A stretch of 64,000 nt of DNA, taken from assembly GCA_041660505.1 (NCBI GenBank), contig JBAZWG010000001.1, positions 477,776 to 541,775 on the forward strand, read 5' to 3'. This document shows, in pieces, positions 1 through 20,109 of the stretch. Source of the stretch: Minisyncoccota bacterium. Its GTDB lineage: Bacteria > Patescibacteriota > Minisyncoccia > Phycocordibacterales > JACRKE01. The notes beneath the pieces are model-generated. The model made no database searches. It worked only from the letters and a program-made list of their open reading frames with translations, and was not told the DNA's origin. Position 1 is the stretch's first letter, and each line of letters opens with the position of its first letter. Both the position numbers and the translations under genes were made by a program.

Positions 1-759
1 CTTGCCTTCAAGAATGCCTCGGAAGGCGGTACCTATAATGCAGGTACGCGTATGGTCCAATGGTCGCGCCAGCTTGGTCCGCGCGAAGGTCACACCTTCA
101 TGATCCAAGTTCTCGCCCGCGATATCGCCGACAACATCGTCGTGACGAACAATGCCCAAATCTATGTGAACGGCAAGACCTACGCATCCAACGACACACA
201 AGTCTGCATCACTATAACACCGATAAAGCTTGAGATCACAGCCGACAAAGCTAATGTTGCGCCGGGCGATAACATCACTTACACCGTTCGTTACTCGAAC
301 GTTGACGGTGCACCGGTTCAGAACTTGAACTTGCGAATGTCTGTTCCTCAAGGTACGACTTTCGTCAGCTCCGACCATCAGAATATCCAAACACAGAACG
401 GCATGGTGAATCTTACTGTCGGCGGGCTCAACCCCAAGCAGGACGGTACCATAAGCCTTGCTCTCAAAGTAGATTCGAAGGTTAATAAAGACCAGCCGAT
501 TACGTTCACTGCGAACGCAAGCTTCCAGGACACTCAAGGTGTCCAACAGCCCGATGTGCTGGCCACTGTTAATACGCCGATCTCGGCCGAGAGCACGAAG
601 CTTAACACCGCAAGCGCCGTAAGTGTCGGCAGCTTCCTCCCCTCATCCTTACTCGGTTGGCTTGCCTTCATTCTCTTGTTCCTAATAATTATCCTCATAA
701 TTACTCGCATCTTGAGCGATTATAAGGGAGGCAAAGGCCATCCGCCCGCGACAGTGTAA
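1..759 (+). CDS. Partial (5'-truncated by window edge) secreted repeat protein, DUF11-like conserved repeat domain, with a C-terminal transmembrane anchor
   Basis: Frame 1 is open from nt 1. It has DUF11-type repeat sequence (ITITPIKLEITADKANVAPGDNITYTVRYSNVDGAP) and a C-terminal hydrophobic helix followed by basic residues (LLGWLAFILLFLIIILIITRILSDYKGGK). Confidence 0.5.
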   Translation, partial: LAFKNASEGGTYNAGTRMVQWSRQLGPREGHTFMIQVLARDIADNIVVTNNAQIYVNGKTYASNDTQVCITITPIKLEITADKANVAPGDNITYTVRYSNVDGAPVQNLNLRMSVPQGTTFVSSDHQNIQTQNGMVNLTVGGLNPKQDGTISLALKVDSKVNKDQPITFTANASFQDTQGVQQPDVLATVNTPISAESTKLNTASAVSVGSFLPSSLLGWLAFILLFLIIILIITRILSDYKGGKGHPPATV

Positions 760-13089: not shown

Positions 13090-16000
13090 ATGAGCATAAA
13101 AAGAATTTCAGGAGTCGTGGCGCTGTTAGCCACTGCCGGTATTGCATCGGTCGCAATGGCAGTTGGACCAGGTGCGCCAGCTACACCGACCATAACAGGC
13201 GGTAATTTGGTAAGCGGAACTATTTACGCAAGCTCTACAACTGCGATTCAGGCCAACGTTAACTTTACTGGAGTGGGTGCGGATGTAAGTGACCACATAC
13301 TCCTTTATCTCGACGGCTCTCTTTTCGGGGGGAAAGATTATACGATAACAGGGTCAGAGTTGGTTTCAACCACAAACAACCCCGTAGAATTCCAGTTTGT
13401 TGGAAGCGATCTGACCACTGAAGTGTCACACAATATTACCGCAGTTGCCAGTACTACCTCGGGCGGAGGATTCAGTGTAGAATCTGCTCCGGCGACAGTT
13501 ATTTTTGATAACACTACGCCGACACTTCCAACTGTTTCTATCGCTAGCAACGCGGCGAGCACGACTCTAGCAGGTGTGGGTCGAACTATAACAGTCTCTG
13601 TAAGCGCAAGTGAAAATCTCGACCCGGCCAAAGTTACGGGTACTATTGCTGGTCAAACAGCAACTGTAAGCGGAAGTGGTTCTTCATACACACTTTCTTA
13701 TACAATGACGGGAAGCGATACTCCTGAAATAGTTCCGTTTGCTATAAACTTTTCTGACCTCGCGGGTAATGCCGGGACGCAAGTTGTTTCTACTACTGAC
13801 GCTTCTTCAGTAACATTCGAAAAAACACTGCCAACGCTTAGTGCGATAATCTACTCTTCTAACGCAAGCTCAACACTTGCAAAGTCGGGGGACATAATTA
13901 CAATTGCGGCGAGTTCAAGCGAAGAAATATTCCCAGTATCTGCGACCATTGCAGGACAAACTGCCACAGTCGCTTCGACCAGCCCGACCGATTACTACTT
14001 CACCACAACTGTTGACGGAAGTCATGCTGAGGGACCTGTTGCTTTGGCGATAGACTTCTCTGATCTTGCCGGCAACGCGGGCACGCAAGTTGTTTCTGCA
14101 ACGGGAGTTGTAAGTATAGACAAGACCGCTCCAACCGCAGGTATTTCTTATGACATTAACCATGCGGTAAAAAATGGTACGTCGCTAACTATTACCGCAA
14201 CAACAACGGAATCTTTAATCACTGCTCCGCTTATTTCAATCACAGTGCCAGTAGGCGGAAGTAATGCGGTGTCGAATGTAAGCATGTCGACTTCGAACGA
14301 TAAGGTTTATGTTTATAGTTACACAGTTGGTACGAATGACGGCACGGCAAGTATTGCTTTGAGTGGAACGACAGATTTGGCCGGCAACACAATCACAGTA
14401 ACACCAACGAACGGCACGACATTCACCGTCGATAACACCGTACCGGCGGCACCAGTAGTAACTACGGTTGGCGGTACCGATAATAAAGTAAACGCCAGCG
14501 AAGCCTCGGCAATCATTGTTGTTGGCACGGCAGAAGCGAACGCTACAACGACAGTTTCTATAACAGACGGCGTAAACACAGTAACTAAAGATGGACTTGC
14601 CGATGGATCCGGAAATTATTCCATAACTCTGAACGGTACGACTGCCGTGCCAGCCGCACTCGCCGACGGCGTTATTACTGCATCAGTAACGGCGACAGAT
14701 ATCGCAGGCAATACCGGTCCTGCGGGAACGAAAGCAGTACTCCAGAATACCTCTGTCCCGATTGCACCAGTGCCCTCGATAACCAACAATATTAACAGCG
14801 CTGCAAGTACAACTGTTGCGCTGATCGGTACTGCGCAAAGTAACACTACGCTTTATTATTCAATCTCGGATGGCACTAAGTACCTAACCGGAACATCAAC
14901 TGTAGTAGCCGGCGCATTTAACGTGACCGGCCTCAATCTCTCGACATTTAACGAAGGGAGCATAACCGCGACGACGACAGTAACAGACTCGGTAGGGAAC
15001 GTGAGTTCTGTCGGAATAGCGACTCCAGGAACGAAGGATACCGTCGCTCCGGTATTTTCTTCTGTTACACCAGCCACCAACGCATATATAAAGAATGTAA
15101 CAACGAGCACCCAGCTTGGTTACACTTTGGGTGAATCGCTCGCGTCCGGTCTCGCGGTCTTCACGAGGACTGGTGGCACTGCCGATGGAACTGTTCATTC
15201 TTGTGCGCTCGCGGGTACAGCTAAAACAACTGGTGCCCCGCGTACGCTCGATATCTCAAACACGACTAATGGCTGTACGATAGTGCAGTCTCTCGTCTCT
15301 GGCTCTGTATATAGTATCGACTTCGGCGGGTCGGACGCGGCAGGGAACAATTCGGCAACCACGACTGTAACTGGCGTCACCTTCGATAATACATTACCTA
15401 CGCTCTCGCCGGTTTCTATTGCCTCAAGTAATGCGTCTACAACACTCGCAAAAGCAGGTGATGTTGTCACATTATCATTCACAAGTGATGAGCCAATCCA
15501 AACACCGACTGTAACAATTGCCGGCCATTCTGCCACTGTTCTGGATATGGGTAGCAACGTCTGGAATGCTTCGACAACCGTGCTTATCGGAGACACTAAT
15601 GCCGCTACGTCTTTCACAATCGACTTCACAGATCTCGCTAATAACGCCGGGACGCAGGTTGTTGCGATAACCAGCGGAAGTCCGGTGGTTATCGACACCG
15701 TTGCACCGACGGCGACACTTGCGTATTCACCGACGACGGCAGTTAAGCCAGGCGCGTCGCTCGTCATCACCGCAACATTGAGCGAGCCGATTGCTGATGC
15801 ACCGGTCTTGAACTTCGATATTTCCGGTCCTTATACTCAATCAGCGGCGGCGATGACAAAAACTGATAGTACACATTATGCAACAACGACCATTGTGGGT
15901 GTTGGAAACGGTTCCGCTTCGGTCAACTTGAGCAATGCAACTGACCTCGCGGGGAACGCAATCACTGGTCTCCCGACGAGCGGCGCGACCTTCACAGTAG

Positions 16001-19000
16001 ACAATGCTGTCCCTACGCTCTCCGGGGTTTCTATAAGCTCCTCGAATACGACACCGACACTTGCAAAAGCGGGGAATATAATAACGCTCGCATTCACGAG
16101 TAACGAGACAGTCCAAACGCCGACCGTCACAATAGCAACCCATTCTGCAACGGTACTGAATATGGGAGGTAATGTTTGGAATGCTTCGACAACAGTGTTA
16201 TCTAACGACTCCAACGCGGTTACACCATTCGCAATAGATTTTTCCGATATTGCCGGTAACGCAGGGACACAAGTAACGACAACAAACGATGCGTCAGGCG
16301 TTGTCATTGATACCGTCTTGCCGAATCTGTATCTCGAAACCGCGATAGCTTCGTTAGTTAACACCGCGACACCGAGTTTTGCATTCCGTTCCGATGAGGC
16401 GGGGAATGTCAGCTATTCCGGCGGGTGTACAGCAACTACACCTTCTGTAACTACGGCAACCACCACAATAACTTACAATTCACTTACCGATGCCACTTAT
16501 GGAAGTTGCGCGGTCAAGGTAACTGACGCTACTGGCAACCAAAGCTTGTCGCTCACGCTCCCAAGCTTCACTATCGATACACTCGCACCGACACTTTCTT
16601 CACGTTCTATTTCTTCGAATAATTCATCAACTACCCTAGCCGTTGTGGGCGACGTCGTCACACTCTCGATTACTTCAAGTGAAAATCTCGCCTTTGCTAC
16701 TAGTACAATAGCAGGTCGTTCCGCGGTGCTCGCAACCACATCTCCGACAACCTTCACTTTCACAATAACAATGAATAGCGGTGATGCAGAAACAGTCATA
16801 CCGTTCACTATCGACTTCACGGACTTTGCCGGTAACTCCGGTACACAAGTTTCTACTGTAAGTTCCGGTTCCAATGTCGTCTTCGATAAAACCGCACCGA
16901 CCCTCTCATCCGTTGCGATGGTATCTAATAATGCTTCTACCACACTGGCAAAGTCCGGTAATATTATCACCCTCTCGTTCACCTCCAGCGAGCCTATCCA
17001 GAATCCCTCGACAACCGTTATCGCTGGACATCTTGCGACCGTGACCGGGTCGGGTACAACATGGACTGCTACTTACACAATGAGCACAGGGAGTCAATCG
17101 GACGGGCCGGTTACCTTCACAATAGACTTCAAGGATAAAGCCGGCAATGATGGAACCACCGTCTCGGCTACGACCGATTCATCTGCGGTAACCTTCGACA
17201 AAACGGCACCGACATTATCTTCGGTATCAATTGCTTCTGACAACGCGAGCACTTCTCTCGCCAAGGTCGGCGACACTATTACTTTGTCATTTACGAGCAG
17301 CGAACCATTGTTGGCGGCCGGTGGGACTATAGCTGGACACACTGCGACATTGGCTACAACAAGCCCAACGACATTCACGCTTACAACCACGATGCTGGCC
17401 GGTGACACTACAGGAACAGTGTCATTCTCTGTGACGTTCACCGATAACGCTGGTAATGCTGGTAGCGCGGTTTCTGTTACCAGCAACGGCACGTCGGTTA
17501 AATTCGACAAAACCAACCCGACGGTCTCTGCCGGTTCAGACGCATCGGCGAATGCGCAATTCACTCAAAACGCAACAGCGAGTGACGCAGGCTCCGGTAT
17601 CGCGACTTATTCTTGGACGAAAACAGCCGGCTCGGGCACAATTACCTTCGGCACCCCTGTGGCGGAAGATACTACAGTAAGTGCATCAGTCGATGGTGCT
17701 TACACGATTCAACTTGTTGCAACAGATAACGCAGGCAATACCGCAACATCGACGGCGACAGTAACATGGGATGCCACCGCACCGACGATTGATATCACCG
17801 CACCGATAGAAGGACTGACAATCGCGACGACGACTTCGCTTACTGTAACAACAAGTGAGACAGCAACTTGTACTTATTCGCTCGACAGTGCGACATCAGT
17901 AACTCTCTCGACAACAGGCGGCACTTCTCACAGTGATACTTTAAGCAATGTTGCTTCCGGCGCACATTCGCTCACGACCACCTGTACTGATCTCGCGGCT
18001 AATATTGCCACCTCATCGACACGCTCGTTCACAGCTCTCACGACAAGCGGTAGCAGTATCACTGGCGGTTCCGGCCCGGTTGTCCTCGACAGCACTCCAA
18101 ACGATGGAGACGTAGCACTTCCGGGCGGGGTCACCAGCCTTACACTTTCCGCAAGTTCGCCACTCTCGGCTTCGACCAGCCTCTCTACTGTTGTGCCGGG
18201 TAGTCCAGGGAGCCTCATGCTCAATGGTGCGCCAGTCTTGCTTAACAACTTCACGATTGGAACAACTACTCGTGTTGGCCTCACGACTGCACAGACAGTA
18301 GGGGACAAAACTATAACCGTTGGCACCGGCTTTACCTTGCAGTCCGGTACGAACGGCACACCAATCACGATAGTTGGCAGTGGCACCGGCGTCAGTATGG
18401 ACTTGCCTGATGGTGTTTCAATCCTTGGACCAACAGGTTGGAACGGCCAAGTCTTGCCTCCGTCCGGCGGTACGACCAACGGCTCCGCACCTTCCGGCTT
18501 TACGGTTGGTGATTCATTCGAAATTGGTTCATCGGACGTACCGCTTCTCCTGACCCAAGCGGCAACCATCACCTTCCCAACTATCAAGCCGATGGTAATG
18601 CGCGTGACCGGTTCAAATACCTGGAACACTCTATCGACCTGTGCCGGCACTTACGCTGTACCAACGGCACCAGCGGCGTTCGGCGAATGTGCCATCGCGG
18701 GAACTTCTGCGACCAAGGTCCTGACATACCACTTGACAACCTTCGGCACGATCACAACGATTCCGGCTACAGTAACACAGAGTTCGAACGGGCCGATAAT
18801 TGGATCGTATGGAGGTAATAATGGTTCAGCTTCAGTGACTACCCCAACCCCAACGCCAACGCCAACGGCAACAAAGACAACCTCTGTTGTTTCGAAAATA
18901 ACTACAAAAGTACCGACAACGACAACGACCGGCAACAAGATTACTGCTCAAACTCCCGCAACTTCGCGTGCTGCGCTCATTGCTAAGTTGAACAGCCAAC

Positions 19001-19209
19001 TCGCCCAACTTCGCAGACAGTTGGCATTATTGAAGAATAACGCCCCCGCCTCGTCCGTAACTAATATCGCTAAAGTTAAGCCGAAAGTCGTTCCGCCAAT
19101 AGCAAACATCAGCGCCTTGAACGAAGAAAAAGTAACTGCGCCCAAAGCCACAACCACCAAGAAAAGCACAGGCTTCTTCGGTAAAGTCTTAAACTTCTTC
19201 GGATTCTAA
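13090..19209 (+). CDS. Giant (2039 aa) secreted surface protein with a signal peptide and at least 12 tandem Ig-like repeats of about 100 aa
   Basis: N-terminal signal (MSIKRISGVVALLATAGIASVAMA). Repeats of the form TLPTLS..SNASTTLAKAGD..IAGHSATV..FTIDFSDLAGNAGTQV. A TPTPTPTP linker and a C-terminal coiled segment. Confidence 0.8.
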   Translation: MSIKRISGVVALLATAGIASVAMAVGPGAPATPTITGGNLVSGTIYASSTTAIQANVNFTGVGADVSDHILLYLDGSLFGGKDYTITGSELVSTTNNPVEFQFVGSDLTTEVSHNITAVASTTSGGGFSVESAPATVIFDNTTPTLPTVSIASNAASTTLAGVGRTITVSVSASENLDPAKVTGTIAGQTATVSGSGSSYTLSYTMTGSDTPEIVPFAINFSDLAGNAGTQVVSTTDASSVTFEKTLPTLSAIIYSSNASSTLAKSGDIITIAASSSEEIFPVSATIAGQTATVASTSPTDYYFTTTVDGSHAEGPVALAIDFSDLAGNAGTQVVSATGVVSIDKTAPTAGISYDINHAVKNGTSLTITATTTESLITAPLISITVPVGGSNAVSNVSMSTSNDKVYVYSYTVGTNDGTASIALSGTTDLAGNTITVTPTNGTTFTVDNTVPAAPVVTTVGGTDNKVNASEASAIIVVGTAEANATTTVSITDGVNTVTKDGLADGSGNYSITLNGTTAVPAALADGVITASVTATDIAGNTGPAGTKAVLQNTSVPIAPVPSITNNINSAASTTVALIGTAQSNTTLYYSISDGTKYLTGTSTVVAGAFNVTGLNLSTFNEGSITATTTVTDSVGNVSSVGIATPGTKDTVAPVFSSVTPATNAYIKNVTTSTQLGYTLGESLASGLAVFTRTGGTADGTVHSCALAGTAKTTGAPRTLDISNTTNGCTIVQSLVSGSVYSIDFGGSDAAGNNSATTTVTGVTFDNTLPTLSPVSIASSNASTTLAKAGDVVTLSFTSDEPIQTPTVTIAGHSATVLDMGSNVWNASTTVLIGDTNAATSFTIDFTDLANNAGTQVVAITSGSPVVIDTVAPTATLAYSPTTAVKPGASLVITATLSEPIADAPVLNFDISGPYTQSAAAMTKTDSTHYATTTIVGVGNGSASVNLSNATDLAGNAITGLPTSGATFTVDNAVPTLSGVSISSSNTTPTLAKAGNIITLAFTSNETVQTPTVTIATHSATVLNMGGNVWNASTTVLSNDSNAVTPFAIDFSDIAGNAGTQVTTTNDASGVVIDTVLPNLYLETAIASLVNTATPSFAFRSDEAGNVSYSGGCTATTPSVTTATTTITYNSLTDATYGSCAVKVTDATGNQSLSLTLPSFTIDTLAPTLSSRSISSNNSSTTLAVVGDVVTLSITSSENLAFATSTIAGRSAVLATTSPTTFTFTITMNSGDAETVIPFTIDFTDFAGNSGTQVSTVSSGSNVVFDKTAPTLSSVAMVSNNASTTLAKSGNIITLSFTSSEPIQNPSTTVIAGHLATVTGSGTTWTATYTMSTGSQSDGPVTFTIDFKDKAGNDGTTVSATTDSSAVTFDKTAPTLSSVSIASDNASTSLAKVGDTITLSFTSSEPLLAAGGTIAGHTATLATTSPTTFTLTTTMLAGDTTGTVSFSVTFTDNAGNAGSAVSVTSNGTSVKFDKTNPTVSAGSDASANAQFTQNATASDAGSGIATYSWTKTAGSGTITFGTPVAEDTTVSASVDGAYTIQLVATDNAGNTATSTATVTWDATAPTIDITAPIEGLTIATTTSLTVTTSETATCTYSLDSATSVTLSTTGGTSHSDTLSNVASGAHSLTTTCTDLAANIATSSTRSFTALTTSGSSITGGSGPVVLDSTPNDGDVALPGGVTSLTLSASSPLSASTSLSTVVPGSPGSLMLNGAPVLLNNFTIGTTTRVGLTTAQTVGDKTITVGTGFTLQSGTNGTPITIVGSGTGVSMDLPDGVSILGPTGWNGQVLPPSGGTTNGSAPSGFTVGDSFEIGSSDVPLLLTQAATITFPTIKPMVMRVTGSNTWNTLSTCAGTYAVPTAPAAFGECAIAGTSATKVLTYHLTTFGTITTIPATVTQSSNGPIIGSYGGNNGSASVTTPTPTPTPTATKTTSVVSKITTKVPTTTTTGNKITAQTPATSRAALIAKLNSQLAQLRRQLALLKNNAPASSVTNIAKVKPKVVPPIANISALNEEKVTAPKATTTKKSTGFFGKVLNFFGF
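13480..17530 (+). repeat. Tandem array of roughly 300-bp coding repeats (Ig-like domain units) inside the giant surface-protein gene
   Basis: Recurrent peptide blocks FSDLAGNAGTQVV and DKTAPTLS at about 100-aa spacing. Confidence 0.7.
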
Positions 19210-19212
19210 AAA

Positions 19213-19260
19213 CGGAGGGTAGAGGACTCGAACCTCTAAGGGCTTTCACCCGCTAGTTTT
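19213..19260 (-). pseudogene. 3' half (variable arm plus T-arm plus acceptor 3' strand) of a class-II (Ser-like) tRNA, with no cognate 5' half adjacent
   Basis: Reverse complement reads CTAGCGGGTGAAAGCCC-TTAGAGG-TTCGAGT-CCTCT-ACCCTCC-G. Its acceptor strand is complementary to the GGAGGGA fragment at 19736-19742. Confidence 0.5.
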
Positions 19261-19290
19261 TCCGCCCTTCGGCGGACCCGCTGGGGCGGG
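19261..19290. repeat. 30-bp perfect direct repeat, copy 1 (double hairpin TCCGCCCTTCGGCGGACCCGCTGGGGCGGG)
   Basis: Identical to 19692-19721; it folds into two short hairpins (CCGCC-CTTC-GGCGG and CCCGC-TGGG-GCGGG). Confidence 0.85.
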
Positions 19291-19312
19291 CAAGACTGCT
19301 TTCGAGACAAGG

Positions 19313-19400
19313 CGGAGGGAGCGAGATTCGAACTCGCGAGACCCTTTCGGGTCTACCGCATTTCAAGTGCGGCGCACTAGACCAACTATGCGATCCCTCC
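19313..19400 (-). tRNA. tRNA-Ser (anticodon TGA), class II with a long variable arm
   Basis: Acceptor GGAGGGA/TCCCTCC, D-arm GCAT-AGTTGGTCTA-GTGC, anticodon arm CCGCA-CTTGAAA-TGCGG, variable arm GACCCGAAAGGGTC, T-arm GCGAG-TTCGAAT-CTCGC, discriminator G. Confidence 0.85.
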
Positions 19401-19650
19401 GCCTTGTTTCGAATAATTTATCAAGATACTCTCGCCCCGTCCCCGACTTCAACCAGTTCTCCCTTTTTCTCGCCTCGGTAAAATCTTCACAGGATTCGGT
19501 ATGAATCAATTTCCAAGGTCGTCCTGCTTTTGTTGAACTGGTTTTTCCGGCATTGTGCGCTCGTAACCTTATATCAGGAATATTCTCGTGGCTTGACCCA
19601 ACGTAACGCTTCCCAGTTTTCTCGCTTAGAAGAACATAGACACAGGACAT
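19363..19650 (-). CDS. GIY-YIG nuclease family protein (COG2827/UPF0213-type small endonuclease)
   Basis: CVYVLLSEKTGKRYVGSSHENIPDIRLRAHNAGK matches the GIY-YIG ... RL.EHN signature. The 3' end overlaps the 5' part of tRNA-Ser by about 38 nt. Confidence 0.75.
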   Translation of the reverse strand: MSCVYVLLSEKTGKRYVGSSHENIPDIRLRAHNAGKTSSTKAGRPWKLIHTESCEDFTEARKRENWLKSGTGREYLDKLFETRRRDRIVGLVRRT

Positions 19651-19691
19651 TTTGTGAGTATATCACAGGAATGGTTTTTTGCCTTTGCACT

Positions 19692-19721
19692 TCCGCCCTT
19701 CGGCGGACCCGCTGGGGCGGG
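19692..19721. repeat. 30-bp perfect direct repeat, copy 2; followed by a tRNA-Ser-like 5' fragment (reverse complement GGGAGGGATCGCATAGCGGTCT at 19722-19743)
   Basis: Identical to 19261-19290. The adjacent fragment matches the first 15 nt of the intact tRNA-Ser. Confidence 0.85.
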
Positions 19722-19851
19722 AGACCGCTATGCGATCCCTCCCAGACCGCCTATATTAGCGAAAAGTGGACAATTAGTCTAGACACTCGCTAATGGCAGT
19801 GTTACGATTATATTATTAGCAAAAGATTATTAGTAATTAATTTAAAAAAGT

Positions 19852-20109
19852 ATGATGGGTTCATGTGATGGTAAGAATCACTGCGCGATGATGAAGTTGG
19901 GCCACTGGCTCATCCTCATCGGTGCTTTGAACTGGGGGGTGTTTGGTCTTGGTATGCTTGTGGGCAAGAGTGACACCTGGAACATTCTTCGAATGTTGCT
20001 CGGCAACATGCCGGTAGTGGAAGGTGTTGTTTATCTGCTGGTCGGTGTCTCCGCTGTGATGAAGCTCATCGGCTGTCACTGCAAGACCTGCTGTTCGGGT
20101 GTAAAATAA
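19852..20109 (+). CDS. DUF378-family small membrane protein
   Basis: WLILIGALNWGVFGLGMLVG ... VYLLVGVSAVMKLIG matches the DUF378 pattern. Confidence 0.6.
   Translation: MMGSCDGKNHCAMMKLGHWLILIGALNWGVFGLGMLVGKSDTWNILRMLLGNMPVVEGVVYLLVGVSAVMKLIGCHCKTCCSGVK

Follow-up and report, generated by a model that had tools for sequence, protein, structure and literature searches.

A putative homing-type cassette combining a minimal GIY-YIG nuclease, a double-hairpin module and a replacement tRNA in bacterial tRNA genes

Organisation of the tRNA-Ser locus

We analysed a 64,000-nt stretch of DNA (hereafter the window) from a Minisyncoccota bacterium (assembly GCA_041660505.1, contig JBAZWG010000001.1, positions 477,776 to 541,775, forward strand), in which a small GIY-YIG nuclease gene and an intact tRNA-Ser(UGA) gene are enclosed by two copies of a 30-nt double-hairpin module (M) and by fragments of tRNA-Ser genes. 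A preliminary description, made from the sequence alone, had recognised a nuclease-tRNA unit between perfect direct repeats and had viewed the outer fragments as the halves of one tRNA split by the element. All features lie on the minus strand and are given here in that direction. The locus starts with a truncated 5' copy of a tRNA-Ser of the inner type (nt 1-21, GGAGGGATCGCATAGCGGTCT; 19722..19742), which ends in the D-loop and agrees with the inner tRNA at 20 of 22 positions, identifying it as a genuine tRNA 5' fragment. The first module copy, M1 (19692..19721), follows directly and comprises the hairpins CCCGC-CCCA-GCGGG and TCCGCC-GAAG-GGCGGA. The truncated copy then resumes with AGTGC (19687..19691), identical to nt 22-26 of the inner tRNA. 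A 36-nt spacer (19651..19686) leads to the start codon of the nuclease gene (19363..19650), which encodes a 95-aa stand-alone protein of the UPF0213/bacterial Slx1-like type. The intact 'cargo' tRNA-Ser(UGA) is found at 19311..19400. The nuclease open reading frame (ORF) overlaps the first 38 nt of this tRNA, and the TGA stop of the ORF is also the anticodon of the overlapped tRNA (19363-19365).

A 13-nt junction (TTGTCTCGAAAGC, 19298..19310) connects the cargo tRNA to the remnant of a second, resident tRNA-Ser(UGA). This remnant consists of AGTCTTG (19291..19297), corresponding to nt 29-35 (the 5' strand of the anticodon stem and CUUG of the loop); of the second module copy, M2 (19261..19290), which is identical to M1 and lies between nt 35 and 36; and of nt 36 to the 3' end (AAAACTAGCGGGTGAAAGCCCTTAGAGGTTCGAGTCCTCTACCCTCCG, 19213..19260), which provides the anticodon-loop AAA, the stem, the variable arm, the T arm, the acceptor strand ACCCTCC and the discriminator G. 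The first ~28 nt of the resident tRNA are lost. The 13-nt junction is possibly a decayed part of this 5' half, as by eye it shows a weak likeness, with deletions, to nt 7-28 of the intact tRNA of a related locus (L093; related loci are numbered with the prefix L). The upstream junction therefore lies in the D-loop of a cargo-type tRNA copy and the downstream junction in the anticodon loop (35/36) of a different tRNA-Ser(UGA).

Repeat searches and folding bear out the direct repeats. They are perfect over 31 nt (19260-19290 and 19691-19721), with the 30-nt core at 19261-19290 and 19692-19721, and each copy forms two adjacent hairpins (-13 kcal/mol as DNA, z = -3.7). The core occurs only twice in the 64 kb, even when three mismatches are allowed, with 0 copies expected by chance, and this is not the pattern of a dispersed genomic repeat. 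Nothing but the nuclease ORF and the tRNA is encoded in the 401 bp between the repeats, and an integrase gene is absent. The inner tRNA was recovered as an intact class-II tRNA-Ser(tga) by ARAGORN (19311-19400) as well as by Rfam (RF00005, 19313-19400; 57.7 bits versus a cut-off of 29). Apart from tRNA, no Rfam family was found at the gathering threshold in the window, nor at E ≤ 10 in 19100-19900. No sigma-70-type promoter upstream of the 5' copy was detected on the minus strand at the scan threshold; by eye, TAGACT-17-TAATAT matches at 8/12 positions and is not claimed.

The outer pieces do not form the two halves of one tRNA, as they come from two different tRNAs and no cloverleaf assembles. 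Joining them was attempted with and without one repeat copy and in ARAGORN intron mode (≤ 600 nt), and only implausible low-threshold models were obtained. The idea of an element splitting a tRNA gene is correct in that the resident tRNA carries M at 35/36, but a single tRNA cut in two is not what is seen, the upstream junction being located in a cargo-type copy.

The nuclease resembles a bare GIY-YIG catalytic domain

The nuclease ORF matches Pfam PF01541 (E = 3.7e-13; 50 bits, cut-off 22.6), in agreement with the initial assignment of a GIY-YIG gene that runs into the tRNA at its 3' end. Residues Y16, G18, R28, H32, N33, E64 and N65 are invariant in nine homologues, and the first motif reads VYV or IYV. 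We take these invariant residues to have the catalytic roles known generally for the GIY-YIG family. An AF2 model (mean predicted local distance difference test score, pLDDT, 86) adopts the GIY-YIG alpha/beta fold, with low confidence for the last 7 residues, which are translated from the tRNA. The top Foldseek matches are UPF0213 BH0048, At-HIGLE/SLX1, the I-TevI catalytic domain, Slx1 and UvrC N-terminal domains (E values of 3e-3 and weaker, probabilities ~1.0). A PDB profile search matched the UPF0213 protein 1ywl, and 1zg2 is also among the nearest solved relatives. As matched and modelled, the 95-aa protein is a bare catalytic domain without a DNA-binding domain of the I-TevI or Seg kind. 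Prokaryotic stand-alone Slx1-like proteins have been described as the minimal form of the GIY-YIG superfamily (PMC1564403). In the closest nuclease pairs, ratios of non-synonymous to synonymous substitution rates (dN/dS) range from 0.04 to 0.21, indicating that the ORF is under purifying selection. Among defence-system and phage protein families, PADLOC gave a weak partial match only, and PHROGs gave none.

Many homologous ORFs stop within the tRNA D-loop (GGTTGA), at a TGA or TAA. It follows that the annotated C-termini of these homologues (…ERCQSG), like some N-terminal extensions (…CPPEAGPPSAEN), are translations of tRNA and module DNA. Among the loci, L008 (2580-3026) alone has a truncated 148-aa ORF of the phage integrase family immediately upstream of the nuclease gene, the start of which it overlaps.

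Syntenic relatives provide an empty site

Syntenic relatives were found via the neighbouring RuvX gene, and have the DUF378-RuvX-PilM synteny in common with the window. L093 (RuvX 71% identical) contains an uninterrupted tRNA-Ser(UGA) in the corresponding place and on the same strand, so an unbroken version of the outer tRNA does exist elsewhere. When the 30-nt M is removed from the window, 50/50 bases from AGTCTTG onwards, across the junction and up to the end of the L093 contig, are identical to the L093 tRNA. This places M exactly between nt 35 and 36, without target duplication. The outer 3' piece (19213..19260) is 100% identical to the L093 tRNA as far as that contig reaches, confirming the earlier view of a genuine tRNA-Ser 3' part; because L093 has the same tRNA intact at the same place, the piece belongs to the resident gene.

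A second set of relatives (L089-L091; RuvX 76% identical) has only a plain tRNA-Ser(UGA) beside DUF378, on the opposite strand. The inner tRNA of the window is identical to the L089 tRNA-Ser at 78/91 positions and to the resident-type tRNA of L093 at 56/100. Being near the former and far from the latter, the inner tRNA is a replacement from a different lineage. Between the window on the one hand and L093 and L089 on the other, the nuclease gene shows presence/absence polymorphism at a conserved site.

L093 has an HNH endonuclease ORF (57-557, minus strand; Pfam HNH_3 26.7 bits and HNH 25.2 bits, above thresholds) in the position of the GIY-YIG gene. It runs into the first 22 nt of the resident tRNA-Ser(UGA) from directly upstream and is accompanied by neither a module nor a 5' tRNA copy. 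The spot just 5' of the resident tRNA-Ser(UGA) seems to have been colonised repeatedly by endonuclease genes.

The architecture recurs across bacterial phyla

A scan of one genome per species identified 141 relatives, of which the best 80 loci were studied, with hosts in Patescibacteria, Omnitrophota, Planctomycetota, Desulfobacterota, Elusimicrobia, Bacteroidota, Verrucomicrobiota and other phyla. Together with ~90 metagenome loci, these ~80 genome loci give a total of ~170 independent loci of many phyla. For the first homologues (53-65% identity), the nuclease gene was found immediately before a same-strand tRNA-Ser at 8/8 loci, in unrelated gene neighbourhoods. At 59 of the 74 evaluable genome loci, the end of the nuclease ORF overlaps a tRNA on the same strand or is followed within 130 nt by the start of one; in these 59 cases, 43 of the tRNAs are Ser, the remainder being Lys, Gln, Val, Asn, Leu, His, Ala and Arg. 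Upstream of the nuclease, 46 loci have a 5' copy of the same tRNA that ends at a GC-rich hairpin, with a mean identity of 95% to the full tRNA (28 copies identical). The distance from module to ATG in related loci is 5-70 nt, and tRNA sequence resumes for 5-12 nt after the module. Nuclease clades track tRNA type (Ser, Lys, Gln, Asn, Val/His, Leu, Met), with hosts of different phyla intermingled in a clade.

Modules flanking both nuclease and tRNA, as in the window, are present at L061, L145, L156, L141, L001, L037, L039 and L081. The order at L001, for example, is a tRNA-Ser 5' half ending in CTTG, the module, the nuclease, a complete tRNA-Ser, CTTG plus module, and the 3' half. The two outer halves correspond to one another, but not to the inner tRNA, at L001, L061, L145 and L156. 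The tRNA allele beside the nuclease differs from the resident type at these four loci, in the window and at L132, which is compatible with co-conversion. The D-loop junction of the window has counterparts of the same type at L029, L031, L047 and L049. Planctomycetales and Bacteroidota contain a mirror form, in which the full tRNA and the nuclease are followed by a 3' copy carrying a module.

Four Bacteroidota loci (L059, L067, L072, L073) have a different hairpin (TCCCGAT…ATCGGGA or CCCGAAAGACTTCGGG), which replaces the whole anticodon arm of an extra tRNA-Met or tRNA-Ala copy and is not inserted in a loop. Contigs end inside the cassette or within 200 nt after it at L013, L014, L017, L018, L021, L036, L040, L044, L050, L071, L074, L086, L093 and others. 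As tRNA pieces and modules are suggested to break short-read assemblies, such loci are probably under-represented in metagenome-assembled genomes (MAGs).

A conserved double-hairpin module in tRNA loops

The module has a common design across the family. The 6-bp stem of its first hairpin (H1) is variable (CCCGCC, TCAGCC, TCCACC, CCAGCC, TCCGCC, TCTGCC) and always perfectly paired; it therefore changes by compensatory double substitutions. With few exceptions, the second hairpin (H2) reads TCCGCC-NNN-GGCGGA. Purines predominate in the H1 loop and pyrimidines in the H2 loop. Treating the module as one long palindrome with complementary loops was rejected, the loop pairs being complementary in 7/53 cases versus 6.4 expected. 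Every insertion point falls in a loop (Ser 35/36 or D-loop, Lys 36/37, Leu 34/35, Asn/His/Val/Met D-loop, Gln T-loop), and an A run usually follows closely on its 3' side. As far as can be told from sequence, the tRNA copy that receives M in its D, anticodon or T loop is in all cases truncated, presumably non-functional, and of the same kind as the intact tRNA. The repeats of the window are copies of a conserved module of an element family, as opposed to target-site duplications of tRNA sequence.

A strict Ser-type module pattern retrieved 93 further metagenome stretches with 98 modules. A nuclease gene follows within 150 nt in 52 of these and is absent from the vicinity of 28; a further 12 come directly after a unit of nuclease plus tRNA, and 6 are cut by contig ends. 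M was never seen in an otherwise complete tRNA: deletion left a complete tRNA for 0/54 modules.

A module in reversed hairpin order (TCCGCCCAAGGCGGA CCAGCCTTGGGCTGG) is located directly after an intact tRNA-Arg(GCG) at L004 (~2813-2897, on the same contig as L022). On either side are pieces of the T arm and acceptor of a second tRNA-Arg copy, and no nuclease gene intervenes.

Signs of mobility and turnover

The modules that flank nuclease and tRNA, spaced by 404-431 nt, are identical to each other in the window, L061, L037, L081 and L145, and nearly so in L141, L153 and L156; between different loci, modules are identical in 1.3% of pairs only. Tandem arrays are also found. L054 has two consecutive units of 5' copy, M and nuclease, and at L135 (219-960) a tRNA-Ser(CGA) 5' half followed by the module is present three times in tandem, spaced by 125 nt; after another 454 nt comes a fourth module, identical to the other three, which are also identical among themselves. 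The related loci L132 and L152 differ by the clean presence or absence of a 226-nt nuclease ORF segment, together with a changed tRNA allele. These arrays and the ORF indel are the dynamics that re-cutting and repair would predict. Truncated copies with two or three modules in their D, anticodon and T loops occur at L047, L066, L145 and L136. One module lies inside the loop of another at L017, and at L030 a hairpin is found inside H1.

Discussion

Our best reading of the window is that a cassette broke the resident tRNA-Ser gene and that the carried tRNA-Ser(UGA) of a different lineage now does its job. More generally, we consider the locus, with a probability of roughly 0.6, to be a selfish cassette of the homing type, directed at the loops of tRNA genes and equipped with a replacement tRNA. 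The cassette would be composed of the 30-nt M, a gene for an 85-95-aa GIY-YIG nuclease 5-70 nt after it, and an intact tRNA that starts no more than ~50 nt from the ORF end or overlaps the ORF. What leads us to this reading is the anatomy of the loci, the comparison of filled and empty sites, the recurrence across phyla, the linkage of nuclease clade to tRNA type, purifying selection on the ORF, the identical flanking modules and the presence or absence of the ORF between relatives. A tRNA-targeting mobile cassette with its own tRNA and a homing-type nuclease was among the options raised in the preliminary description, and it gains support from the empty site, the foreign inner tRNA and the recurrence.

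Mechanistically, the nuclease would make its cut at or close to a loop of a tRNA gene. Its lack of a DNA-binding domain and its likeness to Slx1 make it probable that DNA structure, such as a hairpin or cruciform, is recognised and not a long sequence. The break would be repaired by copying from the cassette-bearing allele, with conserved tRNA sequence providing the homology arms, and this repair may carry over the nuclease gene, M and often the tRNA of the donor, as in the co-conversion of free-standing homing endonucleases. The intact tRNA copy is expected to keep the host viable. Placement of the nuclease between the tRNA promoter and the tRNA would lead to co-transcription and release by RNase P, and M would mark and disrupt the site in the leftover copy.

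Several points weigh against this scheme. The mechanism proposed is derived from comparative anatomy. The nuclease has no DNA-binding extension of the kind that gives known GIY-YIG homing enzymes their specificity. The cargo tRNA retains the presumed target loop, and self-cleavage must therefore be avoided or tolerated. No relative was found on IMG/VR viral contigs. The host assignments are taken from MAG record titles and may be imperfect. Furthermore, the identical 30-nt module is found in two loop contexts of the window (D-loop and anticodon loop), and these contexts, the nested module (L017) and the multi-module copies (L047, L066, L145) fit a self-inserting module better than pure homology-driven copying. 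The homing model alone does not explain the role of M, and homing and module insertion may both operate.

Such observations invite the main alternative, tentative and on balance unlikely, that the 30-nt double hairpin is itself the transposing unit. Here, the Slx1-like GIY-YIG nuclease would nick single-stranded hairpin or cruciform loops in a transposase-like manner and insert M without target duplication; the spare and truncated tRNAs would be survivors of selection, with redundant copies gaining more modules. This would account for the clean 30-nt insertion relative to L093, for identical M in two loop types, for the nested modules (L017, L030) and the two or three modules per truncated copy (L047, L066, L145, L136), for insertion points that all lie in loops and usually 5' of an A run, and for the double substitutions that keep H1 perfectly paired; the 28/98 modules without a nearby nuclease gene would be non-autonomous copies. 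However, GIY-YIG nucleases are not known to ligate or transpose DNA, and M occurs neither in an otherwise complete tRNA nor clearly outside tRNA-derived sequence. The insertion position is fixed for each nuclease clade (Ser 35/36, Lys 36/37, Gln T-loop) and so looks inherited and not chosen anew, and the 64-kb window has only the two copies. If M and the minimal nuclease did constitute a new class of structure-targeted mobile DNA, which we likewise regard as doubtful, the nuclease would open hairpin or cruciform loops of tRNA genes, and even those of the module, M would be copied in with no duplication of the target, and a carried or duplicated tRNA would ensure survival of the cassette. tRNA genes would be natural prey for such an element, because they are universal clusters of stable hairpins. 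The transcript of truncated tRNA plus module may, furthermore, act as an RNA cofactor of the nuclease.

It is improbable that the cassette is a circle with one M, integrated at an att-like M by a host or unlinked recombinase to yield two flanking modules, with the nuclease as passenger or addiction factor. The flanking modules are identical, M consists of short palindromes like many recombinase sites, and at L145 the tRNA-like bases are cargo-type on the inner side of each M and resident-type outside, as Campbell-type integration predicts. Yet there is no recombinase gene in the ~430-bp unit or consistently nearby, the target would already need an M in an essential tRNA, the two modules of the window have different junction contexts, and no circular junction was observed. 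A host-beneficial operon, with the tRNA or its precursor as the substrate of the small GIY-YIG protein and with the truncated tRNA and hairpins as a regulatory leader, is highly improbable in view of the close relatives that have the same synteny without the arrangement, the patchy distribution across phyla with clades organised by tRNA type, the decayed, duplicated and nested copies, and the displacement of the resident tRNA by a foreign one at some loci. In its favour are the tight coupling and probable co-transcription of ORF and tRNA, the purifying selection on the ORF, and a prokaryotic Slx1-like domain fused to a TrmH-like tRNA methyltransferase domain (PMC1564403), a hint of RNA metabolism. 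The earlier suggestion of a degenerate intron, meaning that the outer tRNA is intron-containing or split and that the intervening sequence, a degenerate group I or new kind of intron, is removed at the RNA level, retains very little credibility. Although 35/36 is a favoured group I intron site in Patescibacteria tRNA genes (PMC13011429), group I and group II intron covariance models gave no match in 19100-19900, even at E ≤ 10, the outer pieces come from two different tRNAs, removal of the module restored none of the 54 tRNAs, and the intervening DNA is filled by the ORF and a whole tRNA, leaving no room for a ribozyme core. The likelihood of an assembly chimera or chance repeat is close to nil. 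The repeats do disturb assembly, as seen from the many related contigs that break off at or close to such a locus, but the complete architecture is present in at least 8 independent assemblies, the locus lies within a 719-kb contig, and the repeat is far beyond chance.

Relation to known systems

With the homing-type cassette as the favoured reading, the closest characterised analogue is SegB of phage T4, a free-standing GIY-YIG homing endonuclease in a tRNA gene cluster (PMC2330249). As in the cassette, the gene is free-standing among tRNA genes; the SegB target is a tRNA stem-loop motif, and SegB spreads together with neighbouring tRNA genes by co-conversion, displacing recipient tRNA markers. 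In contrast, SegB, a phage protein, is larger, has a 27-bp recognition sequence and is associated with neither a hairpin module nor a truncated tRNA copy, whereas the window encodes a cellular protein consisting of a 95-aa catalytic domain, which belongs to the general GIY-YIG Pfam family and has UPF0213/Slx1 proteins as nearest solved relatives. The closest matches in sequence and structure are the stand-alone UPF0213/YhbQ/Slx1-like proteins (PDB 1ywl, 1zg2; PMC1564403), which have the same size and fold and no auxiliary domains. Neither a published function for this family nor a link to tRNA genes or a hairpin module was found in the literature searched.

Integrase-borne islands and prophages in tRNA genes (PMC9897764) likewise target a tRNA gene and restore its function with carried sequence. 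In these elements, which are 10-100 kb in size and carry a gene for a tyrosine or serine integrase, the att core is a duplicate of the tRNA 3' part, whereas the present unit is ~430 bp long, has no integrase, duplicates the 5' part of the tRNA in its commonest form and places a foreign 30-nt module at the junction. Patescibacteria tRNA genes also contain group I introns at 35/36, some of them with an HNH homing endonuclease gene (PMC13011429); these introns and the cassette have the host phylum, the anticodon-loop position and the association with an endonuclease gene in common. Unlike the introns, the cassette has no ribozyme and cannot be spliced, function being restored at the DNA level by a spare tRNA and not at the RNA level.

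IS200/IS605 and REP/RAYT elements undergo hairpin-dependent single-strand transposition by HUH (Y1) transposases at a short sequence target. Points of similarity with the cassette are a mobile DNA defined by short GC-rich hairpins, insertion with no target duplication and the existence of hairpin-only, non-autonomous copies. The cassette differs in that the only enzyme is a GIY-YIG protein and the targets are tRNA-gene hairpin loops; no HUH (Y1) transposase is found in or beside the unit, which we therefore do not assign to these families. In the mitochondrial atp6 gene of the fungus Allomyces, a mobile GIY-YIG ORF reportedly (Paquin, Laforest and Lang, in 1994) supplies a substitute for the gene end, with the displaced resident end remaining downstream. 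This is also a free-standing GIY-YIG element in an essential gene, with a foreign replacement part and the resident piece as a pseudogene, but is said to occupy an organelle protein-coding gene, to have no hairpin module and to encode a larger enzyme.

A full-text search, the coverage of which leaves out most subscription-journal papers, found no published cassette of GIY-YIG nuclease, hairpin and truncated tRNA. The cassette is apparently a widespread, undescribed form of selfish DNA. We class it as a free-standing homing-endonuclease-type element, which is unusual for its minimal nuclease, its conserved double-hairpin module in tRNA-gene loops and the rescue of the target by a carried or duplicated tRNA.

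Implications

Stand-alone UPF0213/YhbQ/Slx1-like proteins are common in bacteria and have no known role; one clade can now be tied to a probable selfish element preying on tRNA genes. Beside splicing (introns, inteins) and att duplication by integrases, the cassette would represent a third lifestyle inside an essential gene, in which a working copy is brought or duplicated and the broken one is left behind. It would also provide a mechanism for horizontal tRNA gene replacement across phyla. The cassette would further explain tRNA fragments and contig breaks beside tRNA genes in MAGs of the candidate phyla radiation (CPR) and other groups, and is one origin of mis-annotated ORFs extending into tRNAs. 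Nuclease assays could draw on the conserved module and on the exact loop insertions for concrete substrates.

Flanking ORF

The neighbouring sequence on the 3' side of the locus contains a repetitive, Thr/Ser/Ala-rich ORF of 2,039 aa with a signal-peptide-like start (13090-19209), which ends 3 nt before the resident tRNA remnant. This ORF probably encodes a giant surface protein of the CPR cell.

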